In this document: piece after piece, positions 441 to 16,007 of the stretch | Position numbering within the stretch: position 1 is the stretch's first letter | Layout: each line of letters opens with the position of its first letter | Source of the DNA: a virus | Lineage: Duplodnaviria; Heunggongvirae; Uroviricota; Caudoviricetes | DNA length: 16,007 nucleotides | Reading direction: 5' to 3' (one strand) | Virus record (IMG/VR): IMGVR_UViG_2713896896_000011 | Coordinates: 1-16,007 of that record | The notes under the pieces: generated by a model | Databases searched by the model: none | The model's input: the letters and a program-made list of their open reading frames with translations, nothing else | Told to the model about the DNA's origin: nothing | Program-made: the position numbers and the translations under genes

Positions 441-893
441 CGGCTGATATTGCCAACTGCTGACTAAAGCATACAAATGGTTTGGGGAATAGCGCCAACT
501 CTCTTTTAACTGCAGAAACTCGGCGCAAAATTCACTGCAAAACAGACGATTGCGCTGTTCTTTATTGCCAGTGATAATTCCTAAGGCTCCGCGCCAGTCG
601 TATTTTTTGCCATTATGTTTATGGAAAAAAGCTTCCACATCCTGAAAGCTAGCCTGGAGCGGTAGCATATCCCACTTATCTGACGGTAGTGGCATTATCT
701 TTCCGCGTACACCGCGATCGCGCAGTGATGCAGAGTAGCAAAGGTAATTTTTTTCACCATGTACCACTGCTAACTCGCAGTGGGAATAACTGCCGCGTGT
801 GATTTTACGGGTAAGCCAGTCAGCTAGTTGCGCAATACCCCGGTGCTCTGTTCGGCCTTTATAGCAAGCGAGCCAGACAGTGGTTTTACTCAT
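438..893 (-). CDS. hypothetical protein, last gene of the tail operon; possible Cys/His hydrolase (permuted papain-like / NlpC-P60-like), unverified
   Basis: 151-aa ORF whose ATG (893-891) overlaps the tail fibre assembly stop (892-890) as ATGA, indicating translational coupling. Normal GC. Contains His-containing SYSHCELAVVHGE and Cys-containing LFCSEFCAEF motifs; the family guess is from motif resemblance only. Confidence 0.55.
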   Translation of the reverse strand: MSKTTVWLACYKGRTEHRGIAQLADWLTRKITRGSYSHCELAVVHGEKNYLCYSASLRDRGVRGKIMPLPSDKWDMLPLQASFQDVEAFFHKHNGKKYDWRGALGIITGNKEQRNRLFCSEFCAEFLQLKESWRYSPNHLYALVSSWQYQP

Positions 894-1504: not shown

Positions 1505-1510
1505 TTTTAA

Positions 1511-3169
1511 TTACCATGATATTTTTACGAAACCAGAGGCACCTTTTGTTCCGCTAGTATTGCCTAAGTTTGTTAATTCATTATTGTCATATTCAAAAGG
1601 AGGCAAATAAGATCCTCCCGCTCCTCCAGAACCATAGCCTATTGCTGGTGTCGGATGTGTCATTATTGCCTTACTTCCACCATTATCCAGATATTCTGTA
1701 ATAACAGTGCCAGCGCTCCCTCCTTTTCCATATATGGAATTTTCACCATTCTTGCCAGGATAAAATTCTGCATATAACCGTATTGCGCCAGGTGCATAAG
1801 TATTTGGATGGTCAATGAATTTTATACAAGGCTGCGTAGTGTTAAAGTGATAAATGTTATATCCCCCATGACCTCCTTTGGCAATCATATTAGAAAATGA
1901 AGAGTCACCACCATCAAAGCTTTTTTGTGTTTTCTCTGTGTTATCCGATGAATACTTTACTTGTGAAACAGGTGGATTATTCCAAAATGGACCTCCATTA
2001 CCTCCAGCCCCAACCTTTACTGAAAAATGCTGGCTTGGTTCCACGTTTAAGTAACCAACGAGCAATTCACCTGTATTGCCACCACATGCTTCATAATATG
2101 ATGATTGTGCTCCTCCGGCACCACCACCACCGCCGCCCATAACTTCCACAAATAATGTAGTTACGCCATCAGGAACTGTAAATGTTCCATTTGTAGTATA
2201 AAAACTAGTGTGAGTATGATTAGCCGGAGCTGCAGCATTAGCCTTATCCATTGCCGCCTTAACCGCACTCGGCGTGGCTGCCTCCGTCGTGCTGTTGCTG
2301 TCCGTCGCATTATTCAGCTTCACAATCCCTTTTTGCGTCAGGGTGCCATCCTGAATACCCGTAATCTGCCCCCAGGGATGCGTATGACTGCCTGCAGCTT
2401 TACCATTTGCCAGGTCATACGCCGCCTTAACCGCGCTCGGTGTCGCTGCCTCCGTCGTGCTGGTGCTATTGGTCGCGTTATTTAGCTTCACAATTCCTTT
2501 TTGAGTCAGCGTACCATCTGGAATATCAGTAATTTGACTCCAGGTATGACGATGGTTTCGTGCCTCAATCATCGCCGCTTTCACCGCTTTTGACGTAGCC
2601 GCTTTAGTTTCGTCATCACTGTCAGTGGCGTTACTCAACTGCGTAAAGCCTTTTTGCATTAACGTAGCATCAGGATGATTAGTCGAACGTGCATGTTTAT
2701 CCAGTTGTGAATCAACATAATCACGTGTTGCCAGTACAATACTGGGATCAACGGTGAGTGTTACCGCAGTCGTGTTGGAAACTTCCATAATGAGACGAAT
2801 GCAAACTTGCTTACCGCTGCCGCCGGGTAATAGCGGTTTATACGATTCTGGGAATTTACCGATAGCAATAAGTTCGCCGTCAGTATCAAAAACGCCGACT
2901 TCACGTACATACCAGCCGCCGATATTTTCGGGCAGTACAAGTTCCGCAATTAACCAGTTAGGATTACTGGGTGCAACTGTTAATGTATTTAACTCACCAC
3001 GCCATACTTCATGACGTAATTTTGCTTGACTCGCCGAGGGTTCGTAATATTGCCCACCGCCGTCTCCAACGGCCATCTTTTGCAGATGTAGTTGTTTTTT
3101 ATCCGCAAGAGCACTGGCAATTTTTGCCATCCCCCTGTCGGTCAGGAGGGTATAAAACTCATTATCCAT
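1511..3169 (-). CDS. tail fibre protein (P2 H / Mu S-like N-terminal domain, fibre repeats, Gly-rich C-terminal domain)
   Basis: 552 aa. N-terminus (MDNEFYTLLTDRGMAKIASA...MAVGDGGG) resembles the tail-collar fibre N-domain. Three tandem ~56-aa repeats (TLTQKGIVKLNNATDSNSTTEAATPSAVKAA) follow, then a C-terminal domain with poly-Gly (GGGGGGAGG) encoded by low-GC DNA. SD GGAG precedes the ATG at 3169. Confidence 0.85.
   Translation of the reverse strand: MDNEFYTLLTDRGMAKIASALADKKQLHLQKMAVGDGGGQYYEPSASQAKLRHEVWRGELNTLTVAPSNPNWLIAELVLPENIGGWYVREVGVFDTDGELIAIGKFPESYKPLLPGGSGKQVCIRLIMEVSNTTAVTLTVDPSIVLATRDYVDSQLDKHARSTNHPDATLMQKGFTQLSNATDSDDETKAATSKAVKAAMIEARNHRHTWSQITDIPDGTLTQKGIVKLNNATNSTSTTEAATPSAVKAAYDLANGKAAGSHTHPWGQITGIQDGTLTQKGIVKLNNATDSNSTTEAATPSAVKAAMDKANAAAPANHTHTSFYTTNGTFTVPDGVTTLFVEVMGGGGGGAGGAQSSYYEACGGNTGELLVGYLNVEPSQHFSVKVGAGGNGGPFWNNPPVSQVKYSSDNTEKTQKSFDGGDSSFSNMIAKGGHGGYNIYHFNTTQPCIKFIDHPNTYAPGAIRLYAEFYPGKNGENSIYGKGGSAGTVITEYLDNGGSKAIMTHPTPAIGYGSGGAGGSYLPPFEYDNNELTNLGNTSGTKGASGFVKISW
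2204..2683 (-). repeat. three tandem ~168-bp coding repeats inside the tail fibre gene (third copy degenerate)
   Basis: gccgccttaaccgcactcgg at 2253-2272 recurs as gccgccttaaccgcgctcgg at 2421-2440, a 168-bp period, matching the repeated protein motif. Confidence 0.8.
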
Positions 3170-3171
3170 AA

Positions 3172-3804
3172 TTACTCCGGGTAAATAGATGTAATTTCAA
3201 GGCTCCATTGCCCTGTTCCGTAAAAGATTGTTGTGTTTTGTTGTACTTCCCGTATCTGGAAAGGTAAAAGCGTCGTCAGTTCACCCCCATAAAGCGCACA
3301 GCTAATAACAGGGATAGCACTTTGGTTAATGATCCAGACGATTAATGCTTCCAGTTTTGAACGTGTGTTTTTATATTCATGAATGAGTTCAACTAACTCA
3401 TTGAAAAGGTTTTCATCCATGCCTTTATCCACCAGTTCTATGTCAACCTTAAAAAAATAAGCTTTCCCGCCATATTCAAACCATTCGGCAATAGTTCCAG
3501 GCAATGAGAGTATTTCCAGTACTCGCCGTACCGCCCAAACTGTTCCTTTATATTTATGTAACTCAATGGCTTGCTTAATTAACTCACGCTTCTCTTGTTC
3601 ATCAGTAGTAAATAACCAACCTTCCAGCCCCTGAACGTGAAATTGTTCTGCAAGGGCAGGTAATGCCGAAGCATCAACCAGGTCGACCAGATAAACCATC
3701 AACGCCGTCAGATCGAGTTGCGCAAAACGTTCGGCGGCGATATTTGCCAGAGTTGAAAAACGCTCATCGCTGGTAAGCGGCGGCGGTAGCAGCAATTTAT
3801 CCAT
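3172..3804 (-). CDS. baseplate protein, P2 gpI / Mu gp48-like (YmfQ / DUF2313-like)
   Basis: Lies between the J-like gene and the tail fibre. The ORF track starts at TTG 3819; the likely true start is ATG 3804-3802 (MDKLLLPP...) preceded by GGAG and overlapping the upstream stop by 8 nt. Family call is from size, position and sequence resemblance. Confidence 0.7.
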   Translation of the reverse strand: MDKLLLPPPLTSDERFSTLANIAAERFAQLDLTALMVYLVDLVDASALPALAEQFHVQGLEGWLFTTDEQEKRELIKQAIELHKYKGTVWAVRRVLEILSLPGTIAEWFEYGGKAYFFKVDIELVDKGMDENLFNELVELIHEYKNTRSKLEALIVWIINQSAIPVISCALYGGELTTLLPFQIREVQQNTTIFYGTGQWSLEITSIYPE

Positions 3805-4912
3805 CGCTGACTCCGGCAATCGTGACGTCTATTACAGTGCATTCCGCCCATTCATGCGCCTGCAAAATACGTTTTGTAGGCATGTTCAGCACAACGTCAT
3901 AGACGCCATCGACTTGTAACACTTTGATTATCTGGTTTGGCACAATGTCCTGCCCCAGATGTTTCTGCCGCTGTTGCGTCCAGAGGCTAATCGCTTTACG
4001 CGCCGCAGTCAGTGTTGTCTCCTGATCGGCGGTGGTAAACAGCGTTAGCTGCGCACGAATTTCATACGGCACCCTGAGAGCACATTTCGCACTTACTTTG
4101 TCAGTCAGCGGACGTTTTTTCTCTTTACTCACTTCTTGTTCAATTTGCGCGAGTAGCTCGGTTCCCGGCAGACCATTCAGGGTTAGCGGGTAGAGCTCGA
4201 CGCAGCCTTCTGGCAACCCTTCATCTGGCCCCAGTACTGCAACGTCAATAATTGACTGGCTAACCGAAAGTGTATGAAAGCGATATGCGCCATAGCTGCC
4301 GGCATTACTGAAGCTTTCTGGCGCCAGTTGTATACGCTGGCGTAGTGCATCATCGTTCTCTTCACCGCAACCGCCGGTTGTGGGAGTCAGATTAGTCACG
4401 TTGATATCGTAATAACCGATCCTGTCAACAAGGGCGCTAATCTGTGCAGGCTGCCAGCCATTGCCCTGTTCACCTGCTGCGAGGCTGGTGGCCGGAACGG
4501 CGATATGCAAACTCCTGGCCGGAAGCAGAACATCTTCATCGGTGGCGAACATCACGCTGTCAGAGGCACTGGCCCGCGTCCCCTGGGGAATCAGGATATT
4601 GCTGGTATACGCACTGACGACCGAAAACTGCAACGTCGTTTTTGCCGGTTGCGCAGGTAAACGGTGAACACCCACCAGCTCCCCTAAATAATCCAACATT
4701 GGTGCGCGGGAATACGCGACCAGGTTTTGTTTCGCCGCTTCCTGAATGGCGATGCGCACAAGGTTTTCACGATAGGCAAACAGGTCGATGAGTAACCGTT
4801 CGGCCTGTGCCGGATAGAGTTTTTTACCGCTGGCATCTTCGTATTGCGCAATCATCTCGCTGGTAATTTGCGCAGGATCGCGGTCAATAAAATCGGGTTC
4901 GGCTATCGCCAT
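3797..4912 (-). CDS. baseplate J-like protein (P2 gpJ / Mu gp47-like)
   Basis: 371 aa. Strong SD GGAGG 4-5 nt before the ATG at 4912. Overlaps the upstream gp25-like gene by 10 nt. Conserved position in the baseplate module. Confidence 0.8.
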   Translation of the reverse strand: MAIAEPDFIDRDPAQITSEMIAQYEDASGKKLYPAQAERLLIDLFAYRENLVRIAIQEAAKQNLVAYSRAPMLDYLGELVGVHRLPAQPAKTTLQFSVVSAYTSNILIPQGTRASASDSVMFATDEDVLLPARSLHIAVPATSLAAGEQGNGWQPAQISALVDRIGYYDINVTNLTPTTGGCGEENDDALRQRIQLAPESFSNAGSYGAYRFHTLSVSQSIIDVAVLGPDEGLPEGCVELYPLTLNGLPGTELLAQIEQEVSKEKKRPLTDKVSAKCALRVPYEIRAQLTLFTTADQETTLTAARKAISLWTQQRQKHLGQDIVPNQIIKVLQVDGVYDVVLNMPTKRILQAHEWAECTVIDVTIAGVSDG

Positions 4913-5262
4913 AACACCTCCGTTGAGTTGATTACGCCGTCAGCGGCGCGCCATTGCACACGTAACGTCAGATGTTCACCGTCGATTATCGGTGCTACCT
5001 TCAGCAACCGACATCGCGGTTCCCACTGGCGGATGGCTTCCACCGACTCCCGTACCACATGCGGGATTGCCCGCTCGATGGGGTAATCGATGTAGTGCCA
5101 CAAGTTGCTGCCAAACAGCGGTCTGTGGGGATCACTGCCGCGCGGCGTGCGCAGAATGATGTGTATTGCCTGGTGAATATCATCCAGTCCGCAGACGTAT
5201 TCTTCAGGCCGCTGCAAGGCGGGTTGCCAGTGCAGCGTTGAGGGGCGTGTTTTTGTGTTCAT
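4903..5262 (-). CDS. baseplate wedge protein, gpW / gp25-like (Mu gp46-like)
   Basis: 119 aa. Contains RPLFGSNLWHYIDYP, resembling the gp25/W signature. Located between the spike and the J-like gene. Confidence 0.75.
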   Translation of the reverse strand: MNTKTRPSTLHWQPALQRPEEYVCGLDDIHQAIHIILRTPRGSDPHRPLFGSNLWHYIDYPIERAIPHVVRESVEAIRQWEPRCRLLKVAPIIDGEHLTLRVQWRAADGVINSTEVLWR

Positions 5263-5325
5263 GTGCTTATTTTCGCCCTGAACGGACAGTGGGGATATTA
5301 AAGCGATTTAGAAAACTGATTGATT

Positions 5326-5355
5326 AAAAAGAGAAAACCCGCCATCAGGCGGGTT
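5326..5355 (-). terminator. intrinsic terminator-like hairpin immediately after the spike gene
   Basis: Stem aacccgcc (5336-5343) / ggcgggtt (5348-5355), loop atca. On the minus-strand RNA it is followed by UUCUCUUUUU (plus 5326-5335). Sits in the 98-bp gap between the spike and gp25-like genes. Confidence 0.55.
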
Positions 5356-5360: not shown

Positions 5361-6020
5361 CTAGTGTGAATGGTGATTTGAGTTACCACCGCTATCCTGC
5401 AATGTGCCGCTGGCCTGAACGTTACCAATCACATTGACATTGCCAGTTATCGTGGCGGCGTTACCGATGCCTCCACTTCCTGCCATGCCACCCAGCCAGG
5501 TGAGTTTTTTCATTACCGTGACGTTACCAGTAAAGGTGCTCATGGGCGCATCTACCGTCACTGTCGCCGCTTTAATATCGACGGTATCGGAAGTCACGGT
5601 GACCTGTTGGGCTTTAACCTCAACGTTGGGTGATGTCAGGTTAGTATGGTCAATAACCTCAATCACGATTTTCTCAATACCGCCGTTAATCGTAAGCTGG
5701 TGTGTGCTGCGGTCATATTCAAACGCTGCGCCATCAGAAAACTGGACGTAACGTTTATCTCGCGAGGCCACAGGCGCGGTGTCAACCGTAGAATAAACGG
5801 CCCCAAGTACCACGCCATCTTCGCCGTTGTCGTCCAGCAGAACTTCCACCTGCTCACCCATATCCGGTAGCCAGTAGTCTTTATTGTCCTGGGAATTACG
5901 TTGAAGTACCGCAAGCCAGTTACTCTTCAGATTGTCGCACTCTGGCAGTGTGACTCGCACCCGAACGCTGGTTTCGTCAATATCGCTGATAATCCCCGTT
6001 TGCCGGGTTACTCCCTTCAT
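5361..6020 (-). CDS. baseplate central spike / assembly protein V-like (Mu gp45-like)
   Basis: 219 aa. N-terminus GIISDIDETSVRVRVTLPECDNLKSNWL resembles gpV. C-terminal repetitive beta-helix-like region (GNVTV...GNVNVIGNVQASG) ends in the His-rich tip NSNHHSH. SD GGAGG 4 nt upstream of the ATG. Confidence 0.8.
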   Translation of the reverse strand: MKGVTRQTGIISDIDETSVRVRVTLPECDNLKSNWLAVLQRNSQDNKDYWLPDMGEQVEVLLDDNGEDGVVLGAVYSTVDTAPVASRDKRYVQFSDGAAFEYDRSTHQLTINGGIEKIVIEVIDHTNLTSPNVEVKAQQVTVTSDTVDIKAATVTVDAPMSTFTGNVTVMKKLTWLGGMAGSGGIGNAATITGNVNVIGNVQASGTLQDSGGNSNHHSH

Positions 6021-6029
6021 AGTGCCTCC

Positions 6030-7070
6030 TTACTGGCTGGTTGCTGGCCCGCGCGAAACGTCGATTTCAGTGGTATAGCCGCTGCGCACAAAACTGTGAG
6101 TAGATTTATCAATCAGCCATTGTCCAGAAAGAATACCAAAATCAATGAGTTCGATTTTATTGCCTGCTGTCAGTTCCGGGCAGCCCATCATCCTGAGTGT
6201 TCCGGTTTGCTGATATTCGTTGTGGCTGTCGAGTGCAGCGTTGGCCTTTGCCTGTGCCGCGCCAACATCCGTCGCCCGGCTGTTGAGTTTCAACGTGTCG
6301 GCACTGGTGCCGACTCCACGGGCTGACGGTTTTTGCTGGCTGTCGTGAGTGTAGATAACCAGTTCTTTTTTCTTACTATTTTGATGCTGTACGGTGGCGT
6401 TCTTGTAGATGCGATTAATGGTGTCTTTGAAGGTAAAGTGCGAAACCTCTTTGCGGTCGATGGTTTTCACTGGCGCCAGGCAGCGTAGTGTCGGCAGATG
6501 TGAAAAAATCAGCTCTTTTGTCGTCACTTTCACGGCATAGCCATATTCGCTGGCCAGACGCTTGAGAAATCCAACATCGGTTTCGCCGTACTGTGTCACC
6601 CGGTCAATCGCCAGCGGCTCGATTTTGCCCACCAGCTTCAGACCGTGAGTTTGCGCGATACGACTGGCGATGGCCGAAAGCGTCGTTTCTTCAAAGCCCT
6701 GACTGTTACGGGTACGCAGCGCCTGATTGACGGAAGTGGCAATGCCATCAATATTTACCGTGGAAGGTGGTGCTGAAATATCAATTTTATCAATAATATA
6801 CTGACCGCAATTGAGGAGCGTCTCCCCCTGATAACCCATATGCAGCGCCAGCGTATCGCCTTTGCCGGGATACCACTCTTTTATCCAACGTCCATCGGTG
6901 TCATCCAGTGTAATGGCGATGGTATCTGACTCGTTTTTGATGCTGTCGTGGTAACTGATGCTGGTGACATAGGGCGTGATGTCATAAGTGATATCTTTAT
7001 GCCCATACCAAAGGGTAAAAATGGGCGCGAGTGTGGCAAAGACGCCACCAGATACGCTTATCTCAGCCAT
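6030..7070 (-). CDS. baseplate hub / tail protein, P2 gpD / Mu P (gp44)-like
   Basis: 346 aa, placed between tail protein X and the spike as in Mu and P2 tail modules. Assignment by size, order and N-terminal resemblance. Confidence 0.7.
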   Translation of the reverse strand: MAEISVSGGVFATLAPIFTLWYGHKDITYDITPYVTSISYHDSIKNESDTIAITLDDTDGRWIKEWYPGKGDTLALHMGYQGETLLNCGQYIIDKIDISAPPSTVNIDGIATSVNQALRTRNSQGFEETTLSAIASRIAQTHGLKLVGKIEPLAIDRVTQYGETDVGFLKRLASEYGYAVKVTTKELIFSHLPTLRCLAPVKTIDRKEVSHFTFKDTINRIYKNATVQHQNSKKKELVIYTHDSQQKPSARGVGTSADTLKLNSRATDVGAAQAKANAALDSHNEYQQTGTLRMMGCPELTAGNKIELIDFGILSGQWLIDKSTHSFVRSGYTTEIDVSRGPATSQ

Positions 7071-7270
7071 GGTGGTATCTCCGATAAGGTTTTGTTGACG
7101 GAAATGACCGGAATAATGAGTTGAATACCGGAAGGCAGTACCGGGTAAATGGCGACATGTGGATTGGCGGCGATGATGCGTTCATAAGCCAGCGCATCGC
7201 CGTAGTAATACCATGCCAGATTATCCCAGCGTTCGCCGTCGGTGGTGATATGTTCAAGGTATCGCATCAC
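7058..7270 (-). CDS. tail protein X-like (LysM-like small tail protein)
   Basis: 70 aa. WYYYGDALAYERIIAANPHV...IQLIIP matches the LysM-like pattern of P2 gpX-type proteins. Start overlaps the upstream stop as ATGA. Confidence 0.7.
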   Translation of the reverse strand: MMRYLEHITTDGERWDNLAWYYYGDALAYERIIAANPHVAIYPVLPSGIQLIIPVISVNKTLSEIPPWLR

Positions 7271-8220
7271 CAGCTCCTCGTAATGGTCGCGGCAGCAAGC
7301 TGGCTCACTGCGGGAGTGGTTTGTTGTACCGTTGTTCGTGCCTGCTCAACCAACGTTGCGGCTTTATCGAACGTCGCTTCGGCGATGTCGTTGGTAATGT
7401 CGTCGAAAAGCGCCTGAGCATGGTCAACCAGCGTGCTGGCGTCTTTGGCGCAGTCCCGGATACCTGGCATGTTACCCAGTAAAGCGTTAATCTGCGCCGA
7501 TAACGCTTTTGGGAGTCCTGCCAGCGTTTGCAGATCCATGGGCTGTTTAAACAGGGTTTCGATGGCGTCGATAGTCTTTTTCAACGACGTAATTATCTTT
7601 TCACACTTTTCTTTTAACGCTTTGGCCTCTTTAACCAGTGCTTTCACTTTTGCCACCGTTTTTTTAATATCTTCAATGGCTTGAGTCAGCTCATCGAGCA
7701 TCTCTTTGGCCTTACGCATACCTTCTTCAATGGCGTTCAATATCTGATCAAACCAGGACTCCACCATGTCTGGAAAATCGCTCGCCTTTTCGTCAATATT
7801 CGGGTCTTGGGTAGTAATTGCCGGGGGCAAGAGTGGATTTTTAGGATCGCCGGTGTACTCCTGGAGCGACATTGTTCCGCTTTGAGCAATCACATTGCCC
7901 CAGGGATCGGTGTGCTGGTGGGTGGCGGTTAGCTCCGTAATCACAAACCAGCCGCGATAATCGCCATTGCCAAACACCAGAGCCATCGCTTTGTGGGCAA
8001 GCATGGCTTCACGCAGTCGATTCAGCTCTGTTGTGGGTTGGCAAAACTGGCTGTGCAAGGAAAATTCCAGTGCCAGCATATCCAGCTTATCGCCAATAAA
8101 CTGCACGCCGGGTTTGCCTTCTATACGGGCATGTGTGGCGTAGTCCACGCCCATTGTGCTTTTAAAGCCGTCCCAGAATGTGACAACCTTAAATTCAATC
8201 TCTCCTAAAACGGCATACAT
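7267..8220 (-). CDS. DNA circulation-like tail protein (Mu N / gp43-like, short form)
   Basis: 317 aa, immediately downstream of the tape measure; start overlaps the tape measure stop as TGATG. Central Lys/Glu-rich coiled-coil segment. Assignment mainly by synteny. Confidence 0.6.
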   Translation of the reverse strand: MYAVLGEIEFKVVTFWDGFKSTMGVDYATHARIEGKPGVQFIGDKLDMLALEFSLHSQFCQPTTELNRLREAMLAHKAMALVFGNGDYRGWFVITELTATHQHTDPWGNVIAQSGTMSLQEYTGDPKNPLLPPAITTQDPNIDEKASDFPDMVESWFDQILNAIEEGMRKAKEMLDELTQAIEDIKKTVAKVKALVKEAKALKEKCEKIITSLKKTIDAIETLFKQPMDLQTLAGLPKALSAQINALLGNMPGIRDCAKDASTLVDHAQALFDDITNDIAEATFDKAATLVEQARTTVQQTTPAVSQLAAATITRSW

Positions 8221-10595
8221 CAGGCATACCCCCGGCGCTGTTGTTGCGCCATTACGTCGTTAATCATTCTTTCCAGTTCGCGTTTACTTATCGTCAACAC
8301 GTTCTGAATGTCTTTAGTGGTGTTTTGTCCGTTACTCTGCACGGTAATTTGTGGCGAAAAATTCACCTGAACTTTTCCAGAGGAACGGGAGGGGAGCGTC
8401 GCCGGTTTGGTTACAGATTTACCAGGTAAAGAGGCCGATGCGGGTTTGGCGGCTGTATTTTTTGCCGCTGGTGTCGATGGCGACGTTGTCGTTTTACTGG
8501 ATGGCGCGAGTTGTTTGCCCACAGGAGGCGTTAAAATCGCTCCGGCAACGCCTGGAACAACGGTCGTGGGGGAGATTGATGCGGTATTCGTCGTGCTTGT
8601 AACAGCCGTAGCCGATCCTTCTGTGCTAATACCCATCGTGGTTTTTAGCCAGTCCGGTAAGGCGTTTTTGACCTGATCAATAATGCCTTTCAGAGCGGGG
8701 AAAGCATTCATTATGCCGTCAACCAGACTGCCCAGAAGATTGCTGCCGAACTCGCTAAAACTTGCAGGCATCTCGACACCAAACCAATTCATCACACTGG
8801 AAAAGGCGCTGTAGAACAACTCCAGCGGCGACCAGTCGAGAATTAACCGGCAAATCCCTGCAATGCCGCCGTCAAAGGCCGTGGTGATACGTTGCCAGAT
8901 GGCGGAAAAGAATCTGGAGATAGGTTCCCAGTGGCGATAGATCAGATAAGCAGCGCCCGCAATCGCGGTGATGACCAGACCAATGGGATTCATCAATAAA
9001 ACTCTACCCAACCAGAAGACGGTCTGACCTGCCAGTTTCAATGCGCCAATCAGGCCACGGCCAAGCAGTTGCGTTAGCCATTTTGCGCCGTTATATAATG
9101 ACTTAACCGCTGATAGCATCTTACTTGCCGCGCCTGTGAGCGTCAGACTTGCCCTGACTTTCAGGAAGATATCGACCAGACGAATAAACGGCGAGGCGAT
9201 GACGTTCGCGCCCAGCTTTAAAACATTCAGTGCGCCGTTAAACAGCCAAATCGCTCCGACGATTTTCGCAATGTTTTGCACCAGCGCCGGGTGTTCACGT
9301 AGCCAGGCGCTGAACTGGCGAATCACCGGAGTAAGGCTTTGCGCCAACTCGCCAATCAGCGGCATTAATTGCAAGCCAATGCTGAGCCATAAATCATTTA
9401 ACGCCAGTTGTAACGTTTTAGTTTGTTCAATGGGTGAGGCCATCTGCACAGAAAAATCGTTGTCAATCAGATTCTTACCGCTGTCTTGCATGGCGGAGGC
9501 TTTTAACTGGCGATACTCTTCCATATTCGCCAGCACAGGTGCCAGGAATTCCACTGTTTGCGCATCGCCGAACATTTCGCCCAGATTAAATTGCGTCACC
9601 ATCGATTGCAGTGCGTTGCTGCGAGCAGATAAATCTTCAATTTGCATGGTGCGTTTGAAGGTGTCGAGGATCGCCGGATTCATCTTCTCAAGTTGCGTTT
9701 GCACGATATGAATCATGGCTTCGCTAACACCCATGCCGTTTTGCTGATGTTCAAGCAGAGAGCCTTGCAGATCGACGCCCTGGCTGACGAACCAGTTATC
9801 GGTTTTTTTCGAAAAGATGGTTTGCAGAAAGTGGTCGAAATTCTCCGCCGCCACACTGGCGCTGGCACCATTTTTCATTGCGATCTGCATTGTGGCGGTC
9901 AGTTCAGCCATACCTTCTAAACCCTGTGCGCCAGTTTTAACTGCAAATTTGTCTATCCACTGTGTTTGCCCGGCAACGGTAGGCCCACCGTTTTTGCTAA
10001 TGCCGTACATCATGTTTTGCGCGGCGTGGAAATTTTCTGGCGCAATATTCAGTCGATCATGAGTCGCGAGCGCGGCATTCGCCCATGTTTCAGCACTTTC
10101 GCGCGTGGTGGTGGCCGCTTTGGCGATCTCCGGCATATAACGGTTGAGATCCTGCATCGACGACAAATTACCTTCGATTAGCACCTGGGCTGCGTTCTGT
10201 AAGGTGGTCTGCTGCTGGTTAAAATCCATGCTCCAGTCGCGCAGATTAAGGCTGAGTGTCTCGCGGGTTGTATCATTCATCCCACCTTTGGTCGCCAAAT
10301 TGACCATGTTGTCCTGAAACTCATACGGCAACTTCCAGTCAGGGATTTCAACATTGAATACTTTGCTAAATTGCCCGGCAAATGTTTGGGTTTTCTCCAT
10401 CAGATCAGCGCGGTTTCGGCTATTTTCCTCCAGGCGGAGAGCGGAATCGGCAAGTTGCTGCGTTAGTTTGATTACTGTCGCTTGCTGAGAAGAGAGTGCT
10501 AACAATGTTCTGGCGTTGAGTGAGCCGTAACGGGCTATTGCCTGCGTCAACGTCTCATTACGCGCCTGAAGCTGGGTAATAATATCGTTGGCCAA
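8220..10595 (-). CDS. tail tape measure protein
   Basis: 791 aa with internal hydrophobic segments and a Ser/Thr/Pro-rich C-terminal tract, located between chaperone and baseplate genes. Apparent start is TTG at 10595-10593 with AAGAG upstream; there is no in-frame ATG between the upstream stop (10634-10632) and the TTG. Confidence 0.85.
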   Translation of the reverse strand: MANDIITQLQARNETLTQAIARYGSLNARTLLALSSQQATVIKLTQQLADSALRLEENSRNRADLMEKTQTFAGQFSKVFNVEIPDWKLPYEFQDNMVNLATKGGMNDTTRETLSLNLRDWSMDFNQQQTTLQNAAQVLIEGNLSSMQDLNRYMPEIAKAATTTRESAETWANAALATHDRLNIAPENFHAAQNMMYGISKNGGPTVAGQTQWIDKFAVKTGAQGLEGMAELTATMQIAMKNGASASVAAENFDHFLQTIFSKKTDNWFVSQGVDLQGSLLEHQQNGMGVSEAMIHIVQTQLEKMNPAILDTFKRTMQIEDLSARSNALQSMVTQFNLGEMFGDAQTVEFLAPVLANMEEYRQLKASAMQDSGKNLIDNDFSVQMASPIEQTKTLQLALNDLWLSIGLQLMPLIGELAQSLTPVIRQFSAWLREHPALVQNIAKIVGAIWLFNGALNVLKLGANVIASPFIRLVDIFLKVRASLTLTGAASKMLSAVKSLYNGAKWLTQLLGRGLIGALKLAGQTVFWLGRVLLMNPIGLVITAIAGAAYLIYRHWEPISRFFSAIWQRITTAFDGGIAGICRLILDWSPLELFYSAFSSVMNWFGVEMPASFSEFGSNLLGSLVDGIMNAFPALKGIIDQVKNALPDWLKTTMGISTEGSATAVTSTTNTASISPTTVVPGVAGAILTPPVGKQLAPSSKTTTSPSTPAAKNTAAKPASASLPGKSVTKPATLPSRSSGKVQVNFSPQITVQSNGQNTTKDIQNVLTISKRELERMINDVMAQQQRRGYA

Positions 10596-10684
10596 AATTG
10601 TTTCTCTTATAGATTGGTGATGGCCCGCTGGTTAGTTTTCTGAAAAATGGGCTGGGAAGAAATAAACCTGGCGGGCTTTGAAGA

Positions 10685-10709
10685 ACTCGCAGACATCAGG
10701 TCTGCGAGT
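10685..10709. other. 10-bp perfect stem-loop in the chaperone-tape measure spacer
   Basis: actcgcagac (10685-10694) / gtctgcgagt (10700-10709), 5-nt loop. The loop contains the stop codon (10698-10696) of the +1-frame extension ORF. No adjacent U-tract on either strand. Confidence 0.5.
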
Positions 10710-10846
10710 CATATTCGATTTTTATTTGAGCGCTGGCTTCATCCAGCCAGTGACTAAAGTCATCTATCGTGAGCGCGTCAATCTCACTGGGTGGAAAGCG
10801 AAACCATCTCGCCAGTAGCGCCATTGCCTGCCATAGCAGGGGGGGA
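10696..10846 (-). other. candidate programmed-frameshift extension of the tail assembly chaperone
   Basis: A C7 run on the coding strand (plus 10839-10845) lies inside the chaperone gene. The +1 frame stays open from there to TGA at 10698-10696, 88 nt beyond the 0-frame stop; the -1 frame ends at 10766-10764. Chaperone-tape measure pairs with frameshift products are a conserved feature of tailed phages. Confidence 0.3.
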
Positions 10847-11101
10847 TTCTGTAGCCACGGTAAGCATGGATTGAAATCGTTTCTGCAACGCCTGGTAATC
10901 CAGCAAATCCATTTCAGCTAAATCTTCTGGTACCAGCCCGGTCATCGCTGCCATTAGCGGTTCATCCCATTCTTCCGGCTTTTCGCTGACCCGGCGTGCA
11001 TTACGCATATCTTTGACTTTCAGGCGACGTAATTGTAGCGTGTCGATATTATTTCCTGCTGCCGACGTAAAGGGAAACTGTAAGATATAATGCTCTTTCA
11101 T
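10784..11101 (-). CDS. tail assembly chaperone (Mu gp41 / P2 gpE-like)
   Basis: 105-aa acidic protein directly upstream of the tape measure, with SD AAGGA before the ATG at 11101. Conserved position. Confidence 0.7.
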   Translation of the reverse strand: MKEHYILQFPFTSAAGNNIDTLQLRRLKVKDMRNARRVSEKPEEWDEPLMAAMTGLVPEDLAEMDLLDYQALQKRFQSMLTVATESPPAMAGNGATGEMVSLSTQ

Positions 11102-11127
11102 TTTGTATCCTTATTTATTTTGCGGAG

Positions 11128-11147
11128 TTCGGGGCCGTAGCCCCGAA
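11128..11147. other. stable stem-loop between tube and chaperone genes
   Basis: ttcggggc (11128-11135) / gccccgaa (11140-11147), loop cgta, 4 nt after the tube stop. No U-tract follows on the minus-strand RNA, so it is not a canonical terminator. Confidence 0.5.
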
Positions 11148-11151
11148 TAAC

Positions 11152-11676
11152 TTAGCCACCGATGTTATTGCGATAGGTACTTAATTGATCCACGCCGTTA
11201 ACGCGGAAAATATTCGCCATATAATCCAGTTCAAGCAGCGTTTCACCATCGACTACTTGTTTAATATAAGTGCAGCCAAAGGCGCTGCTGAATTCCGGGT
11301 TTTCATTCTGTTTAAATGTGCCCAGTGGATTTTTTTTAAACATCACGGTTAAATGTGTGACTAACGCTAATTGATTCGCTTTCCCCTGAGAGTTATAACA
11401 ATCAATACTGGAGCGACACTGTAATGCTACAGCCTGCCACGGGTTTGCCGTTTTACGCATTACGTCCTGGTAAAAGGAGTTCCATTTAATTTCCCCCTCC
11501 AGTTTATCGAAACCAGCCGGGAGTTCTATTTTACCCACCATGCCCAGTGCTTTATGTTCCTGCATAATTAAACTGACATCTGGCAATTTAATTTCTGTTG
11601 CACGGCCTAAAAGATTATTACCATCGAGATAAATATTGGCGTTGGTAATACGGTTAATTTGAATTTTTCCAGCCAT
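11152..11676 (-). CDS. tail tube protein (Mu M / P2 FII-like)
   Basis: 174 aa, immediately after the sheath gene (TAATG overlap), in the conserved sheath-tube order of contractile tails. Confidence 0.8.
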   Translation of the reverse strand: MAGKIQINRITNANIYLDGNNLLGRATEIKLPDVSLIMQEHKALGMVGKIELPAGFDKLEGEIKWNSFYQDVMRKTANPWQAVALQCRSSIDCYNSQGKANQLALVTHLTVMFKKNPLGTFKQNENPEFSSAFGCTYIKQVVDGETLLELDYMANIFRVNGVDQLSTYRNNIGG

Positions 11677-13097
11677 TAGCGATTGCTCTCCAGAGAGACT
11701 AAATATTCAGAGGTAATTTCAGTTTCAAACGTCAGACGTTCCAGCGGCGGCGGTGGGGTAAATTTATAGCTGAGCAATAAATGCCCGGCACTGAGTTCAG
11801 CCGGTGAATTTCGCGCCGGATCGTACCAGCACTCAAAGCCAAGCAGTGCGCCGTCGGCAATCAGTTTTCGGCCCCAGGTATTTACCGATTCGGTCAGCGC
11901 GTCAATCAGTGCCTGATTGATCGGCATATCAATATACTGCTGACTGAAATAACGGATTGACTCATTAATTACATCGCCTGTCCGGCGAACGTTTTCAAAG
12001 TTACGCATATGAGTCACGGTTGGCCATGCCGCTGTGCGGTTGCCCCACAGGCGCAGACCAGAACCATAACTATTGAAAATAGTGGTAATACCGTTTTCGT
12101 TGAGCTGATTCACTTCGCTTTGTGGATCATCAATCATTGCGGAAAGCGAACGTTCGATACCGGTAATACCCTGAATTTCCTGGTTTGAGTTGCTCCACCA
12201 GAAACCTTTTTCGAGGTCTACTTTGGCACGTAGCCCGGCAGCGCGCGAAGAGAGAGGTTCAAGAATTTCCTGGTTAGTGATGCCATCGTAAACTTTGACG
12301 TGTGGGTAGCATAAACGTGCACGATCAGAGCTGGTATTGAAGTTGATTGCGCCTTGCGAACCGCGTCCAGCCAATACCTGCTGGAATGTAGTCCCAATTG
12401 GGGCATCAATGTAGGTAATCGCACCGAGTTTTTCCGCTTGTGCAATCAGCTCGGTAGTCACTGATTTTTGCGTACAAAAAACGGGTGCCAGCAGAATTTT
12501 GGCGTAGAAACCATACAAGTTATAAGTGTCCTGAAGGAGCCTCATCCCCGTGCGATCGCCTGCGGTATTAACGGCCCCGATAATATCGGCTGCGGTGACC
12601 TTTGTAGGGTCAACATAGGTATAAGTCGCGTAAACCTTTGCTCCTGCCGCAATTTCAGTTCCTGTACGGGTAATAACGCCGTCAGCGGCATTAACGCTGT
12701 ATGATGTATTTTTGTATGTAGTGGAACTGATACTTGCTCTTAGCGTTACCGAACTTACCCCCGGATGAGTTAATTTAGCTTTATCGTCACTATTGAACGT
12801 AATGGTTTCATTGGTAATGTGTAGTCCATGTTTTACTGGATCCAGCACATTAATTACCACCACTGTACCGGCACCGTGATCATAAATCGCCTTCAGCGCC
12901 TGCGGGATCGTAAAGTTAGCCTGAGTCGATCCAAACTGTGCCGCGTCACTTTCAGAAAGGCACAGCGTCGGTTGGTTTACCGGGCCACAGGGAGCGGTAC
13001 CGATTAAAGCGATTACAGCAGATTTTACTGCTTTTACCGGACGCGGGCCGGTTTCAATTTCAATGGTTTCTACACCGTGCAGATAATTAGCTGCCAT
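11676..13097 (-). CDS. contractile tail sheath protein (Mu L / P2 FI-like)
   Basis: About 473 aa. The ORF track starts at TTG 13103; the more likely start is ATG 13097-13095 (MAANYLHG...) preceded by GAGGAA. Size and position are typical of sheath proteins. Confidence 0.85.
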   Translation of the reverse strand: MAANYLHGVETIEIETGPRPVKAVKSAVIALIGTAPCGPVNQPTLCLSESDAAQFGSTQANFTIPQALKAIYDHGAGTVVVINVLDPVKHGLHITNETITFNSDDKAKLTHPGVSSVTLRASISSTTYKNTSYSVNAADGVITRTGTEIAAGAKVYATYTYVDPTKVTAADIIGAVNTAGDRTGMRLLQDTYNLYGFYAKILLAPVFCTQKSVTTELIAQAEKLGAITYIDAPIGTTFQQVLAGRGSQGAINFNTSSDRARLCYPHVKVYDGITNQEILEPLSSRAAGLRAKVDLEKGFWWSNSNQEIQGITGIERSLSAMIDDPQSEVNQLNENGITTIFNSYGSGLRLWGNRTAAWPTVTHMRNFENVRRTGDVINESIRYFSQQYIDMPINQALIDALTESVNTWGRKLIADGALLGFECWYDPARNSPAELSAGHLLLSYKFTPPPPLERLTFETEITSEYLVSLESNR

Positions 13098-13284
13098 GTA
13101 CAATTTCCTCTACGTTATTTTGTTCTTCCTGGGGAATGATGAGAATCAAGTGATTTCGGGCAATCATGGTCATAACCCACTCATTGTCTTCTGGCAGATC
13201 AATTTCACTGTTCGGCCATAATAAGATTTCTTGACCGTCGGCAAGGGTGACGCCGCTTGCCGGACCGTTGTAGATATATTTCAT
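13087..13284 (-). CDS. small conserved protein upstream of the sheath (Mu gp38 / DUF2635-like)
   Basis: 65 aa. Start overlaps the upstream stop as ATGA; overlaps the sheath start. Assignment by position and size only. Confidence 0.5.
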   Translation of the reverse strand: MKYIYNGPASGVTLADGQEILLWPNSEIDLPEDNEWVMTMIARNHLILIIPQEEQNNVEEIVHGS

Positions 13285-13736
13285 TCAGTTTCCTCGTAAT
13301 TAACTTCAGTAAGCAGGGGAAGATCCGTGCTGTCCTGTTCAGCGATAAACAGCGAGCTGGTCGCCATTTCCAGGATGTAGCGGCAGAAACCGTCGCTCTC
13401 ACCCGTATTAATTTCTTTTTCAAGCCAAATAAGATGATCGCAATCAGGAGGCTGAAGGCCTCCCAATGCGCTGCGTATGTGATCAAGTGCGTTTAACGCA
13501 TCACAATTTTTGCCAACAATAACGGTGGCGGTTAAGCGGAGTATTTGCTGTTGTACAATGGCATCACTACTTTCGGGCGTGGTGAAGACAGAACCGCTAT
13601 AATTAATAATCACCGTAATCTGTTGTGTCTGTGGAATATATTTTGGGGCATCCGTAGATGAAATGAATATGTCCATTTCAGGATGCCGATCACGTAATCT
13701 GACCACGACATAATTCATTACAGATAAAACTTTCAT
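13281..13736 (-). CDS. tail terminator / tail completion protein (Mu gp37 / K-like)
   Basis: 151 aa, first gene of the structural module after the terminator hairpin, with SD AAGG upstream of the ATG at 13736. Sits where Mu-like genomes encode gp37 before the sheath. Confidence 0.5.
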   Translation of the reverse strand: MKVLSVMNYVVVRLRDRHPEMDIFISSTDAPKYIPQTQQITVIINYSGSVFTTPESSDAIVQQQILRLTATVIVGKNCDALNALDHIRSALGGLQPPDCDHLIWLEKEINTGESDGFCRYILEMATSSLFIAEQDSTDLPLLTEVNYEETE

Positions 13737-13842
13737 ATGAGGTTTACCTTATTACCGCTCACTTCGTTATCGTTGAAATGTATTCTGAAGCAGTGAGAGT
13801 GAAGAATCTTTTAATGTGATTTAGAGAAAAAATTGAATGGTT

Positions 13843-13877
13843 ATAAAAAATCCCCACACTTACGTAAAGGTGGGGAT
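13843..13877 (-). terminator. rho-independent terminator separating the lysis cassette from the tail structural genes
   Basis: Near-palindromic 28-bp hairpin (13850-13877; arms atccccac / gtggggat) 5 nt after the stop of gene 13882-14196. On the minus-strand RNA it is followed by UUUUUUAU (plus 13843-13850). Confidence 0.65.
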
Positions 13878-13881
13878 GTAT

Positions 13882-14196
13882 TTAATAACTGCCACGTTGT
13901 AATAACTCTATTTTGCTATATAAGGCATCCAGCTTTGCTTCTAATACTGCTTGTCCACGAAGATAATCCTCTCTGCGGACATAATACAGTGGAAGTTCGG
14001 CACGAAATTCGAGAAATTCTCTTTCCAGTTTCGACCAGCTTGTTTCTGATTCCCTGCGGGCATTTTCCAGGGACTCAAAACGCTCATTAAGTCTTTTTTC
14101 AATTTGCGCTAACAGCAATTTTCCGGCAGCAAACATTAATCCAACGAATGAAAGCATAAAGGAGATCACTTCCCAAAAATCGATACTGAGTTTCAT
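13882..14196 (-). CDS. membrane-anchored coiled-coil lysis accessory protein (i-spanin-like or releasin-like)
   Basis: 104 aa. N-terminal hydrophobic segment (WEVISFMLSFVGLMFAAGKLLL) followed by a charged coiled-coil region. SD GAGGGG 4 nt before the ATG. Immediately downstream of the lytic enzyme. Confidence 0.5.
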   Translation of the reverse strand: MKLSIDFWEVISFMLSFVGLMFAAGKLLLAQIEKRLNERFESLENARRESETSWSKLEREFLEFRAELPLYYVRREDYLRGQAVLEAKLDALYSKIELLQRGSY

Positions 14197-14208
14197 CGGC
14201 CCCTCTGA

Positions 14209-14814
14209 TTAGTGAAGACAGCTTGCCTGTCCCCAGAGTAAGTAGCGGGCGGCGTGTTGATAGAGAATCATCTTCGGATAGTGACGATTTTCTCGCCAGT
14301 TTGCGGCGCTGCGCCCGGCGTTGACTTGCTCAACATGACCAAACCAGATGGCGGCATTTAACCCTTTTGTTGTCGCCAGTTTTTTATCCCGGTTAATCCA
14401 ACCCTGACCACCGTTATAGGCGCTTAGAGTAAACGCCATACGTTGACAATCATTTTTTGCAGAGATGTTGTTCCATAAATGCTGGTCGTACTGTACCAAC
14501 GCCCGGATTGCCCAGGTTGGGTTATACGGTTTGTTTTCATGTAGCTGTGGATACAGTTGGCTTATCCATGTCGCTGTGGCAGGCATAAATTGCGCCATAC
14601 CTTGTGCGCCAACGGGGGAACGTACCATTGGCTGCCAGGCGGACTCCTGGTGTAATTGCCCGGCAAAGTCAGCCACCGGAGCGTTCAGTCCCCAGACTTC
14701 TCGGGCGGTACGAATCAATTCATTTCTCCATGCCAGAGAGGCTTGTGGTGGTTCAGACGCGTTAAGCGGGAAAAGAACGAAAATAATCATAGGCGCGATA
14801 TATTTTAGCCACAT
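14209..14814 (-). CDS. lytic transglycosylase-type endolysin (SLT domain) with N-terminal signal or signal-anchor
   Basis: SLT-like motifs (QLHQESAWQP with the catalytic Glu context, GAQGMAQFMPATA, AYNGG). The likely start is ATG 14814-14812 (MWLKYIAPMIIFVLFPLNA...), abutting the holin-like stop in TAGTGATG. The ORF track's longer start at 14913 overlaps the upstream gene and is probably not used. Confidence 0.75.
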   Translation of the reverse strand: MWLKYIAPMIIFVLFPLNASEPPQASLAWRNELIRTAREVWGLNAPVADFAGQLHQESAWQPMVRSPVGAQGMAQFMPATATWISQLYPQLHENKPYNPTWAIRALVQYDQHLWNNISAKNDCQRMAFTLSAYNGGQGWINRDKKLATTKGLNAAIWFGHVEQVNAGRSAANWRENRHYPKMILYQHAARYLLWGQASCLH

Positions 14815-14816
14815 CA

Positions 14817-15104
14817 CTATAGCCCTAACGCGACGGAAAGGCAGACTGCAGCCACGATGATGGCGCGACGAATCATTGCCGCTGCGTAGCAACGCGGTTC
14901 CTTTCTGGGGCAAAAAAAGTCAGGCCGTGCCCAGGGGAACAAACTACGATCGAGCCAGTATCCCAGCACTGCAGAAAGTGAAACCAGGCTTAGTTTATAA
15001 ATGACGACCGGAATTTGTGCTGAAGATGTCCAGCCGATTAATGCGATCAGAGCAATGGCTGCAGCCAGCCAACCGGAAAGACGGGGAAAAGTGATTTTTC
15101 TCAT
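14817..15104 (-). CDS. holin-like small membrane protein, first gene of the leftward operon
   Basis: 95 aa with two or three hydrophobic segments. Strong SD AGGAGA (15116-15111) 6 nt before the ATG at 15104. Directly upstream of the lytic transglycosylase. Confidence 0.55.
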   Translation of the reverse strand: MRKITFPRLSGWLAAAIALIALIGWTSSAQIPVVIYKLSLVSLSAVLGYWLDRSLFPWARPDFFCPRKEPRCYAAAMIRRAIIVAAVCLSVALGL

Positions 15105-15659
15105 ACGATATCTCCTGATAAGTGAGATACCAGTGTCTGCTTATCTCTTTGCTGAAGAATGAAAAAAGCTTTAATAAATAACTTTAAAAAATGTGTTCTC
15201 TTCGAATTAACATGTTCGCCAATTAATCTCCCAACTCAAAATAGAGAACTAAGGATAAAATGGCTGCTAGTTAGATAAATCCTGCGTTATGTGTAATGAA
15301 GGGGATGACATATTGCAATCATGGTCATTACTTATTTGATTTTTAAAGTTTGTTTAAAAAAATCCTCGACTGTGAGGGAAACGAGCTTTTTGAAAAGTAG
15401 GCGATAAAAATGATAAATAGCACTGTATATGTATACAGTATCGTGTAAAATGGCACTCCTGTTGATAAGACATGTAATGAAAATAATATATTTGTTTTGT
15501 GAATTTATAATTCGTTTTAATTTTTATTGCATATACATTGTGATTATTTATTTGCGTGTTGAATGTATTGAAAAGCAGTAATTGCACCAACTTAGCGGAT
15601 ATCCGTGGTGTAACTCACATCAGAGTCCATACAGGGTGCAAGATATATGGAGATGAAAA
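15105..15659. promoter_or_regulatory. AT-rich divergent control region between the lysis/tail operon and the Mor-like gene
   Basis: About 555 bp at roughly 28% GC, flanked by divergently oriented start codons with good Shine-Dalgarno sequences on each side. Contains the LexA-like box and several dyad symmetries. Confidence 0.6.
15421..15440. promoter_or_regulatory. LexA (SOS) box
   Basis: CACTGTATATGTATACAGTA matches the E. coli LexA consensus TACTGTATATATATACAGTA at 18 of 20 positions, with intact CTGT-N8-ACAG (15423-15438). A TTGAAA -35-like hexamer at 15390-15395 and AT-rich -10-like sequence TGATAAAT (15411-15418) lie just upstream on the plus strand. Confidence 0.7.
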
Positions 15660-16007
15660 ATGATACAAAAAGCAAAAGAGATGACCCGGACACCGGAGAT
15701 CATTAACGATTTGGCGTTTCATGCTTCGCAAGTTCTGATTGAGAGCATCAATCTGGATAGCTCATCTGCGGAAAATGTTGGCTATGCCATTGCCGATCGC
15801 ATGATGCGAAACTGGGGCGGACAAAGCATTTATTTTCCAAAAGGAATCGCCAGGCGTGCCTCGGAGCGGGACTATCAAATCTATAGCGAGTGCGATGGGC
15901 GCAACTACGCCGAATTAGCGAAGAAATATAATCTGACGCTGCAATGGATTTATAAGATAGTAAAACGCGTGCATACAGAAAAGCAGCAACAGCGCCGTAT
16001 GCAGTAG
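15660..16007 (+). CDS. Mor/C-family transcriptional activator (Mu middle/late activator-like)
   Basis: 115 aa. C-terminal region GGQSIYFPKG...RDYQIYSECDGRNYAELAKKYNLTLQWIYKIVKR aligns by eye with Mu Mor (GGQVYIPRG...RIWNDFNGRNVSELTTRYGVTFNTVYKAIRR). SD GGAGA 6 nt before the ATG. The stop codon is the last triplet of the window. Confidence 0.7.
   Translation: MIQKAKEMTRTPEIINDLAFHASQVLIESINLDSSSAENVGYAIADRMMRNWGGQSIYFPKGIARRASERDYQIYSECDGRNYAELAKKYNLTLQWIYKIVKRVHTEKQQQRRMQ

Follow-up and report, generated by a model that had tools for sequence, protein, structure and literature searches.

How a contractile-tail gene cluster that carries no repressor of its own could be switched on, and in what order its operons would respond, is the question raised by the stretch of viral DNA analysed here (the window: 16,007 nucleotides, positions 1 to 16,007 of IMG/VR record IMGVR_UViG_2713896896_000011, Caudoviricetes). 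A gene for a Mor-family transcription activator (15660..16007, plus strand; Pfam PF08765) lies at its right end, next to the host gene lysC, and is transcribed away from lysis and tail genes on the minus strand. We favour, with a probability of roughly 60%, a one-step circuit in which this is the single Mor of a domesticated headless tail island and in which the SOS response would, through loss of LexA, lead to Mor and from Mor to the tail operons. In an undamaged cell, LexA bound to a box at 15423-15438 would occlude a compact, invariant promoter module in the gap between the Mor and holin genes. DNA damage would trigger LexA self-cleavage, and Mor would be made. The activator would then bind nnnTAAA-N5-TTAAAAGn, a site that closely precedes a poor -35 and stands 19 nt from the -10, in the manner of Mor and C at the Mu promoters. 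This would activate two operons, each insulated by a terminator: gp37 to V, with the sheath, tube, tape measure and hub, and W to the fibre. The lysis operon, with its half-degenerate box, would be weakly Mor-dependent, delaying lysis, and/or fed by a leftward LexA-controlled promoter. We infer the binding of Mor to the boxes, the control of Mor transcription by LexA and the production of particles from the features described below.

The activator gene encodes a protein of 115 amino acids; GGAG at 15649-15652 precedes its ATG, and its TAG stop ends on the last base of the window. The initial annotation had called this open reading frame (ORF) a Mor/C homolog, and profile searches bore this out. 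It matched Pfam Mor (PF08765) with E = 8.2e-38 and 129 bits, against a curated cut-off of 24.9 bits, over profile positions 2-105 of 107, and PHROG 532, 'late transcriptional activator', with E = 7e-36. In PDB, phmmer aligned residues 46-111 with Mu Mor (1RR7, E = 5e-9) and gave a weaker match to Mu C (9L0X, E = 3e-5); the WGGQ..Y.P motif and the helix-turn-helix (HTH) align with the Gly-rich linker and C-terminal HTH of Mu Mor/C. The ORF thus encodes a full-length Mor-family protein, of a kind already known and in a gene already annotated: an identical protein is public as 'Mor transcription activator family protein [Escherichia albertii]' on 206 contigs. Between genera the ratio of nonsynonymous to synonymous substitution rates (dN/dS) of Mor is 0.03-0.06, with synonymous sites saturated, which points to purifying selection. 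The recognition helix, LQWIYKI, is invariant in the window Mor, BcepMu gp01, P0022 and P0025 (the latter two at 43-46% identity), and it differs in Mu Mor and Mu C. A tblastn search found no second Mor-like sequence within the window, and the sequence beyond 16007 is lysC, with nothing phage-like. The gene therefore stands as the single activator of the cluster, and a second one past the window edge, which had been entertained at first, is excluded.

On the minus strand the genes fall into three transcription units, because both intergenic gaps that remain besides the one next to Mor open with a strong intrinsic terminator, formed by a hairpin and a U-run. The terminator at the end of the lysis operon (13844..13877, minus strand; -15.5 kcal/mol, z = -3.5) is present in six of seven aligned taxa and mostly deleted in Dryocola; that at the end of the tail operon (5326..5355, minus strand; -15.3 kcal/mol, z = -3.9) has an 8-bp stem with six GC pairs. 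The two regions first put forward as candidate promoter sites, 13737-13842 and 5263-5325, proved to be real gaps with wider limits, 13737-13881 and 5263-5360. Directly after each terminator comes a 20-bp box, then exactly 19 nt and a -10-like hexamer, with no -35 consensus. The putative promoter of the gp37-to-V operon (13782..13826, minus strand) consists of the box CTCTAAATCACATTAAAAGA (13826-13807), the 19-nt spacer and the -10 CAGAAT (13787-13782); within it, ATTAAAAG and nAnAAT are invariant in seven taxa despite otherwise scrambled spacers. It would serve the genes at 5361..13736 (minus strand), assigned with Pfam as gp37, a 65-aa ORF, sheath, tube, tail assembly chaperone, tape measure and gpU-, X-, D- and V-like proteins. 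The corresponding W-to-fibre promoter (5263..5313, minus strand) has the box TTCTAAATCGCTTTAATATC (5313-5294), the same 19-nt spacer and the -10 GAAAAT (5274-5269). It precedes the genes at 438..5262 (minus strand). Those for W/gp25, J, I, a tail fibre and a DUF4376 protein were likewise assigned with Pfam, and a 151-aa ORF (438-893) completes the operon. This promoter is kept in three taxa including E. coli and Salmonella, where it lies downstream of an inserted gtr operon.

The box is shared well beyond the island. From 19 sites its consensus is nnnTAAA-N5-TTAA(A/T)A(G/T)n, of which nnnTAAA-N5-TTAAAAGn is the window form. With a position weight matrix (PWM) trained on tailocin sites or on BcepMu only, the gp37 site was the top hit in the window, and the W site was the second best. 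Scanned across the 36.7-kb BcepMu genome, the tailocin-only PWM placed its top three hits upstream of gp21 (holin), gp32 and gp49 (W), with scores of 24.5, 22.8 and 15.4 (the highest score in 100 shuffles was 19.9). Conversely, the PWM built from these three BcepMu sites ranked gp37 first and W second in the window, E. coli and Salmonella. In the carotovoricin cluster of Pectobacterium the box occurs upstream of the holin gene, gp37, the tail assembly chaperone gene and W, each time 19 nt from a GAYAMT hexamer, and it is also present in Chromobacterium loci and other Mu-like prophages. Promoters dependent on Mor or C have been described as carrying a dyad upstream of a suboptimal -35, with a good -10 (bioRxiv 10.1101/2025.05.02.651988), and the predicted gp37 and W promoters share this architecture. 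We infer that Mor proteins of the BcepMu/RdgB branch bind at this box. At W, only 6 nt separate the -10-like hexamer from the start codon (window 5260-5274), which has no Shine-Dalgarno sequence, so the W mRNA is probably leaderless; the same geometry recurs at BcepMu gp49 and gp32 (L010 30811-30825 and 18848-18853), the gap being 8 nt in carotovoricin, and may be a lineage-wide feature.

Had the activator acted alone, as supposed in the initial annotation, three sites of action were expected, upstream of the holin gene, gp37 and W. The shared motif, box and spacing included, was found at the last two, and the holin site has the left half only. The lysis cassette (13882..15104, minus strand; Pfam Holin_2-3 and SLT; PHROG holin, endolysin and phrog_462) comprises a holin (14817-15104), an SLT-type endolysin (14209-14814) and a BcepMu gp25-like membrane protein (13882-14196), all on the minus strand, with gene starts that agree with the RefSeq annotation in a related genome (L001). 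Its promoter region (15132..15192, minus strand) was delimited by conservation in seven taxa. The -10-like GACACT, complementary to 15132-15137, belongs to a conserved GAYACT upstream of the holin gene that is positionally orthologous to the -10 of the carotovoricin holin promoter. At 15157-15176, the canonical register, the left half-box TATTAAAG is intact and the right half is lost, replaced by TTTTC(A/G)TTC in all seven taxa; by eye, a T-rich right half is also seen in both Enterobacter islands. Scored by half-site, the left gives +4 to +6; the right gives -4 to -14, where canonical sites score +11 to +14. A further AT-rich element, 13 bp upstream of this, extends to 15192. The carotovoricin holin promoter has a full box in the same register. 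The third site is thus best described as a conserved variant, and the Mor-dependence of the holin promoter is uncertain. The cassette also lacks Rz/Rz1 spanin genes such as gp23/24 of BcepMu or the Rz-like gene of carotovoricin, and no lipobox ORF of at least 26 aa was found in any minus-strand frame across 13882-14814.

What would control Mor itself? Mor and the holin gene (14817-15104, minus strand) are transcribed divergently and, as first described, Mor is separated from the lysis operon by 555 bp of AT-rich DNA (15105-15659; 31.9% GC vs 47.5% for the whole window). Missing from that description was a conserved LexA (SOS) box in this gap, CACTGTATATGTATACAGTA (15421..15440), with its core CTGT-N8-ACAG at 15423-15438. 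It agrees with the 20-bp LexA consensus, TACTGTATATATATACAGTA, in 18 of its 20 positions; no other CTGT-N8-ACAG occurs in the window, where 0.16 would be expected by chance. For comparison, 80 loci with Mor relatives were fetched with a Mor alignment query and typed by tblastn; this query was used instead of an earlier single-protein query of genome contigs with gp37, which had returned no relatives. The first 15 lysC-island loci to be examined, from six genera (E. albertii, E. coli, Salmonella, Phytobacter, Dryocola and two Superficieibacter), all have a LexA box 237-309 nt upstream of Mor, and so does Citrobacter freundii. Of the 65 other Mor loci, 64 showed none in the 1.2 kb preceding Mor; the lone match, in Pseudomonas at -557, is off consensus outside the CTGT/ACAG core. 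Box and flank, GTGTAAAATG, are invariant across taxa, while Mor synonymous sites are saturated between genera.

The box overlies a module that can be read as a promoter on either strand. The leftward sigma-70 candidate (15422..15449, minus strand) combines a -35 TTTACA (15449-15444), a 16-nt spacer and a -10 TACAGT (15427-15422). It scores 9/12 in a promoter scan, comes out first among minus-strand promoters, in an unchanged position, in all seven taxa and, with a score of 9.8 in six of the seven, is the only positionally conserved candidate around the box. In the Mor-ward reading (15423..15451, plus strand; PWM score 6.4), the -10 is TAAAAT (15446-15451), and the LexA box lies over a poor -35, CTGTAT, and the spacer. 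This reading is conserved too, identical invariant bases forming the -35 on one strand and the -10 on the other. The LexA box overlaps the -10 and spacer of the leftward promoter and the -35 and spacer of the Mor-ward one, and LexA would be predicted to block either. An extra rightward sigma-70 promoter of fairly good quality (TTGATA/16/TAATAT) lies at 15462-15489, 24 bp to the right of the box, in E. albertii and E. coli only; it is not kept in other genera. A promoter overlapping the left flank of the LexA box was ruled out, since a 10-bp indel between E. albertii and E. coli alters its geometry.

Two other conserved blocks lie in the gap. Block 2 (15341..15385, plus strand; defined from alignments) holds a Mor-box-like element directed toward Mor (15341-15360) and, 18-19 nt on, a -10-like hexamer that reads AACGAG in the window and TACGAT in Citrobacter and Enterobacter. 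On the Mor strand, PWM hits at this block score 19.4 in Dryocola, 7.7 in locus L095, and 11.5 and 12.6 in two Enterobacter islands (E. cloacae, L096; E. cancerogenus, L098). The window has the weakest version, with TTTAAAAA lacking the G, the hexamer AACGAG and a PWM score under the shuffle maxima. Block 2 is a candidate Mor autoactivation promoter. Block 4 (TATTTATT...TTGAATGTATTG...GCACC; 15543..15592, plus strand; also from alignments) lies 70-115 nt upstream of Mor and shows neither a consensus promoter nor a conserved RNA structure. Its end, TTGCACC, forms an inverted repeat with GGTGCAA (15634-15640), 25 nt before the Mor start; GCACC/GGTGC is kept in most taxa, not in E. coli S10, and the hairpin is unsupported by RNAalifold. 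An RNA element was rejected for the gap, where Rfam gave nothing credible and RNAalifold no conserved fold in block 2 or the Mor leader. Small ORFs were likewise rejected, as the alignments showed none conserved across taxa, and the consensus sites of several host regulators, compared by eye with blocks 1, 2 and 4, gave no convincing fit.

The surroundings of this circuit identify the kind of element it would serve. The window is 100% identical to NCBI assembly GCA_051396155.1 (L007) and holds a headless contractile-tail and lysis island of about 15.5 kb, of the BcepMu/carotovoricin type, beside lysC in E. albertii. Pfam families were assigned to 18 of the 21 large ORFs, every one of tail, baseplate or lysis type; of the other three, two had no Pfam hit and one (438-893) was left out of the library scans. 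Among the Pfam assignments of the window ORFs there is no capsid, portal, terminase, transposase, integrase or repressor gene. The initial annotation had treated the cluster as the late genes of a Mu-like phage; because head, terminase, portal, transposase and integrase genes are absent and host genes flank it, these are instead tailocin genes. The island also holds a fixed place. In E. coli S10 (88% identical DNA) it lies between host genes, with Mor as its last gene, 61 bp from convergent lysC, and in eight genomes with the exact Mor protein (L002-L009) lysC starts 49 bp past Mor. The same neighbour is found in Salmonella (STM4198-STM4219 in LT2 numbering), C. freundii and Enterobacter cloacae. 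Overall, the source genome and nearly all related islands have 49-130 bp between Mor and the convergent lysC, the exception being E. cancerogenus, with two host genes between Mor and lysC. This chromosomal neighbourhood is shared by at least seven genera; among the 5426 complete E. coli genomes, 197 (~4%) carry the island. Gene content, the lack of head genes and the fixed lysC neighbourhood classify the cluster as a putative domesticated R-type tailocin island. A paper on an ST131 'tailocin' was set aside as a description of it, since it concerns a P2-like prophage; a motility screen lists STM4216 and STM4219 among its hits.

Judged by analogy, the closest functional precedent is the RdgA/RdgB pair of Pectobacterium, which mediates the DNA-damage induction of carotovoricin. 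RdgB is a Mor-family protein 50% identical to the window Mor, and the carotovoricin cluster (L094) has the same headless layout, in which holin/SLT, a gap, gp37-V, a gap and W-fibre follow one another. Its sheath is 75% identical, and the same Mor box stands at all four of its promoters. The two systems differ in how the activator is placed and held in check. The carotovoricin cluster lacks a Mor gene of its own: rdgB is not linked to the tail genes but lies between host genes, next to rdgA, a repressor gene encoding an HTH and an S24 peptidase (cI/LexA-like). The window island, by contrast, encodes its activator in cis, in divergent orientation to the lysis genes; it has no private repressor, and in place of the dedicated RdgA there is a host LexA box. 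No LexA box was found upstream of rdgB or in the 21-kb carotovoricin stretch examined. Carotovoricin, moreover, has four full boxes, whereas the lysis-promoter box of the window is half-degenerate. The carotovoricin cluster was supplied by P0093; P0084, considered for it, is a complete Pectobacterium prophage. PMC13566846 attributes the DNA-damage induction of pectin lyase to rdgA-rdgB, citing Liu et al. 1994, and terms carotovoricin a 'Mu-type tailocin'.

The PrtR/PrtN system of the R- and F-pyocins of Pseudomonas aeruginosa follows the same logic with different proteins: RecA-dependent loss of a repressor releases one activator of tailocin and lysis genes (PMC5411513). Pyocins use a dedicated LexA-like repressor, PrtR, instead of LexA, and their tail genes are of the P2 and lambda types. 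To our knowledge, PrtN is not a member of the Mor family. With Mu, the window shares an activator of the same family and fold class and an activator site just upstream of a weak -35, with a good -10. Mu, however, has two paralogs in series on the late-gene strand, no LexA input, and different recognition helices and sites. Relative to Mu, the window would thus represent a one-step system with a different DNA specificity.

The divergent layout had been taken for a rewiring of Mu, a view that does not hold against BcepMu, the nearest phage type with a sequence. Its gp01 (48% identical to the window Mor, with an identical recognition helix) is the sole Mor/C gene, at the left genome end and on the strand opposite all late genes, and the same box and spacing occur upstream of its holin gene, gp32 and W. 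In transposable prophages, Mor ends the early operon, after the genes for the transposase, B, gp05 and GemA. BcepMu itself, a complete transposable phage, has gp01 at the end of a repressor-controlled early operon that includes the transposase, B and GemA; in the window island the early and head genes are gone, and the gp37 operon promoter is absent from BcepMu at that position. Because a BcepMu-type genome without its early and head genes would have exactly this arrangement, the divergence is inherited. An apparent evolutionary intermediate is a Lelliottia-like locus (L097 1-5400; Logan DRR741398), in which the head genes are deleted and the lysis genes run directly into gp37, and where the DNA beside the holin gene still carries an HTH_3 repressor gene and, in divergent orientation, an early operon that includes an rve transposase. 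Headless gp37-sheath-tube clusters also occur in Chromobacterium (L035, L036, L037, L044) and Rivihabitans (L070), where Mor and gp37 are divergent neighbours and the short gap between them contains a canonical Mor box, with no intervening lysis genes and no LexA box; three of the four Chromobacterium contigs stop within ~1 kb past Mor.

Control of Mor by LexA is favoured because the island has no repressor gene, and our confidence in this particular step is only moderate, because promoter scores favour the leftward reading. Several observations weigh against the proposed circuit. The best-conserved promoter overlapping the LexA box points away from Mor (9.8 vs 6.4 Mor-ward), and the promoter at 15462-15489, outside LexA cover, would, if active, express Mor independently of LexA. 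The islands of E. cloacae (L096 2389-2853) and E. cancerogenus (L098 3503-4006) have neither the LexA box nor the TGTAAAAT module and keep Mor, the tail genes and blocks 2 and 4; LexA control is therefore not universal, and another layer, perhaps these blocks, must exist. None of three PWMs gave a significant hit for a third canonical Mor box upstream of the holin gene, and a search of the literature library found no paper on the lysC-island locus or its particles. LexA might accordingly gate the lysis operon rather than Mor, with the leftward promoter reading through a 310-nt leader into the holin, SLT and gp25-like genes and Mor placed under other control, such as blocks 2 and 4, a host factor or autoactivation. 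That promoter is the best-scoring and the only positionally invariant one near the box in seven taxa, the canonical right half of the holin box is lost in this lineage only, and blocks 2 and 4 persist in Enterobacter without the LexA module. Yet without an island repressor, unrepressed Mor would make the tail genes constitutive. In addition, GAYACT and the left half-box, in register near the holin gene, argue for a proximal promoter, nothing further is conserved in the 130 nt between it and the module, and in BcepMu-type genomes the Mor-ward direction is that of the early promoter. On balance we regard lysis gating as possible but unlikely. A variant that we find doubtful has LexA shutting two overlapping divergent promoters at once, with Mor amplifying itself through block 2 and the half-box delaying lysis. 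The double use of the invariant bases as -35 and -10 would suit it, as would the likeness of block 2 to a Mor-ward Mor box, accompanied at 18-19 nt by a TACGAT-like hexamer in up to 10 taxa; the Lelliottia-like locus, too, retains in the corresponding position a repressor gene and a divergent early operon. Against this, block 2 is at its weakest in the window, its half-site spacing is off by one in most taxa, and the LexA box would fall downstream of the block 2 start site. Quite tentatively, the gap might be seen as a minimal commitment switch made from phage parts and a host repressor, the half-box acting as a Mor-concentration timer that puts tails before burst.

Two further explanations would dispense with a working one-step circuit altogether. 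If the cluster were a decaying prophage remnant, Mor and its boxes would be relics without present function. IS1 in the sheath gene of one strain, a DDE transposase in the lysis cassette of another, the restriction of the island to a small minority of complete E. coli genomes (the 197 noted above) and the missing spanin genes of BcepMu and carotovoricin are in keeping with decay. They are outweighed by intact genes throughout the window and in at least seven genera, by the low dN/dS of Mor at saturated synonymous sites, and by boxes, terminators and a LexA site that stay invariant amid scrambled spacers; we consider a relic improbable. Least credible is a two-step cascade as in Mu, where Mor is followed by C, with the second Mor/C paralog encoded elsewhere. 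The initial annotation had invoked Mu's sequence of activators as the model for comparison, and the window does not follow it. Here lysC adjoins Mor, the window has one such gene only, BcepMu likewise manages with one, and a single type of box serves every late promoter of BcepMu and carotovoricin, which makes a hidden second activator very improbable.

Control of a single Mor by LexA, the reading preferred here, would give an unstudied tailocin-like island a compact and testable circuit, consisting of a LexA box, one Mor activator, two box promoters and a variant lysis promoter. The conserved LexA site, the Mor box common to BcepMu and carotovoricin, and the three-operon anatomy are what this analysis adds. 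The general principle is unchanged, as a path from SOS through an activator to a tailocin is already the logic of pyocins and carotovoricin. Because the Mor box is conserved from a Burkholderia phage to carotovoricin, it could be used for annotating late promoters and for engineering inducible tailocins.

A few minor features of the island complete the description. At its left border, between the last island gene and its neighbour, a hairpin at 411-433 (9 bp, 8 GC pairs) is probably a bidirectional terminator; the left neighbour is annotated in E. coli S10 as a nucleotidyltransferase domain protein. Insertion sequence (IS) elements sit inside the island in some strains, so in some lineages it is undergoing inactivation: IS1 truncates the sheath gene in one E. 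albertii genome (L005 5396-6093), and a DDE_3 transposase gene lies inside the lysis cassette of the E. cloacae contig (L096 4037-5068). Cargo genes are inserted where the V terminator meets the W promoter, and the W promoter box stays with W. There, Salmonella carries a gtrABC operon for O-antigen glucosylation (Infantis, L011 4451-7604; STM4204-4206 in LT2), and a Pectobacterium BcepMu-like prophage carries an AbiJ-like gene (L092 18123-18977).

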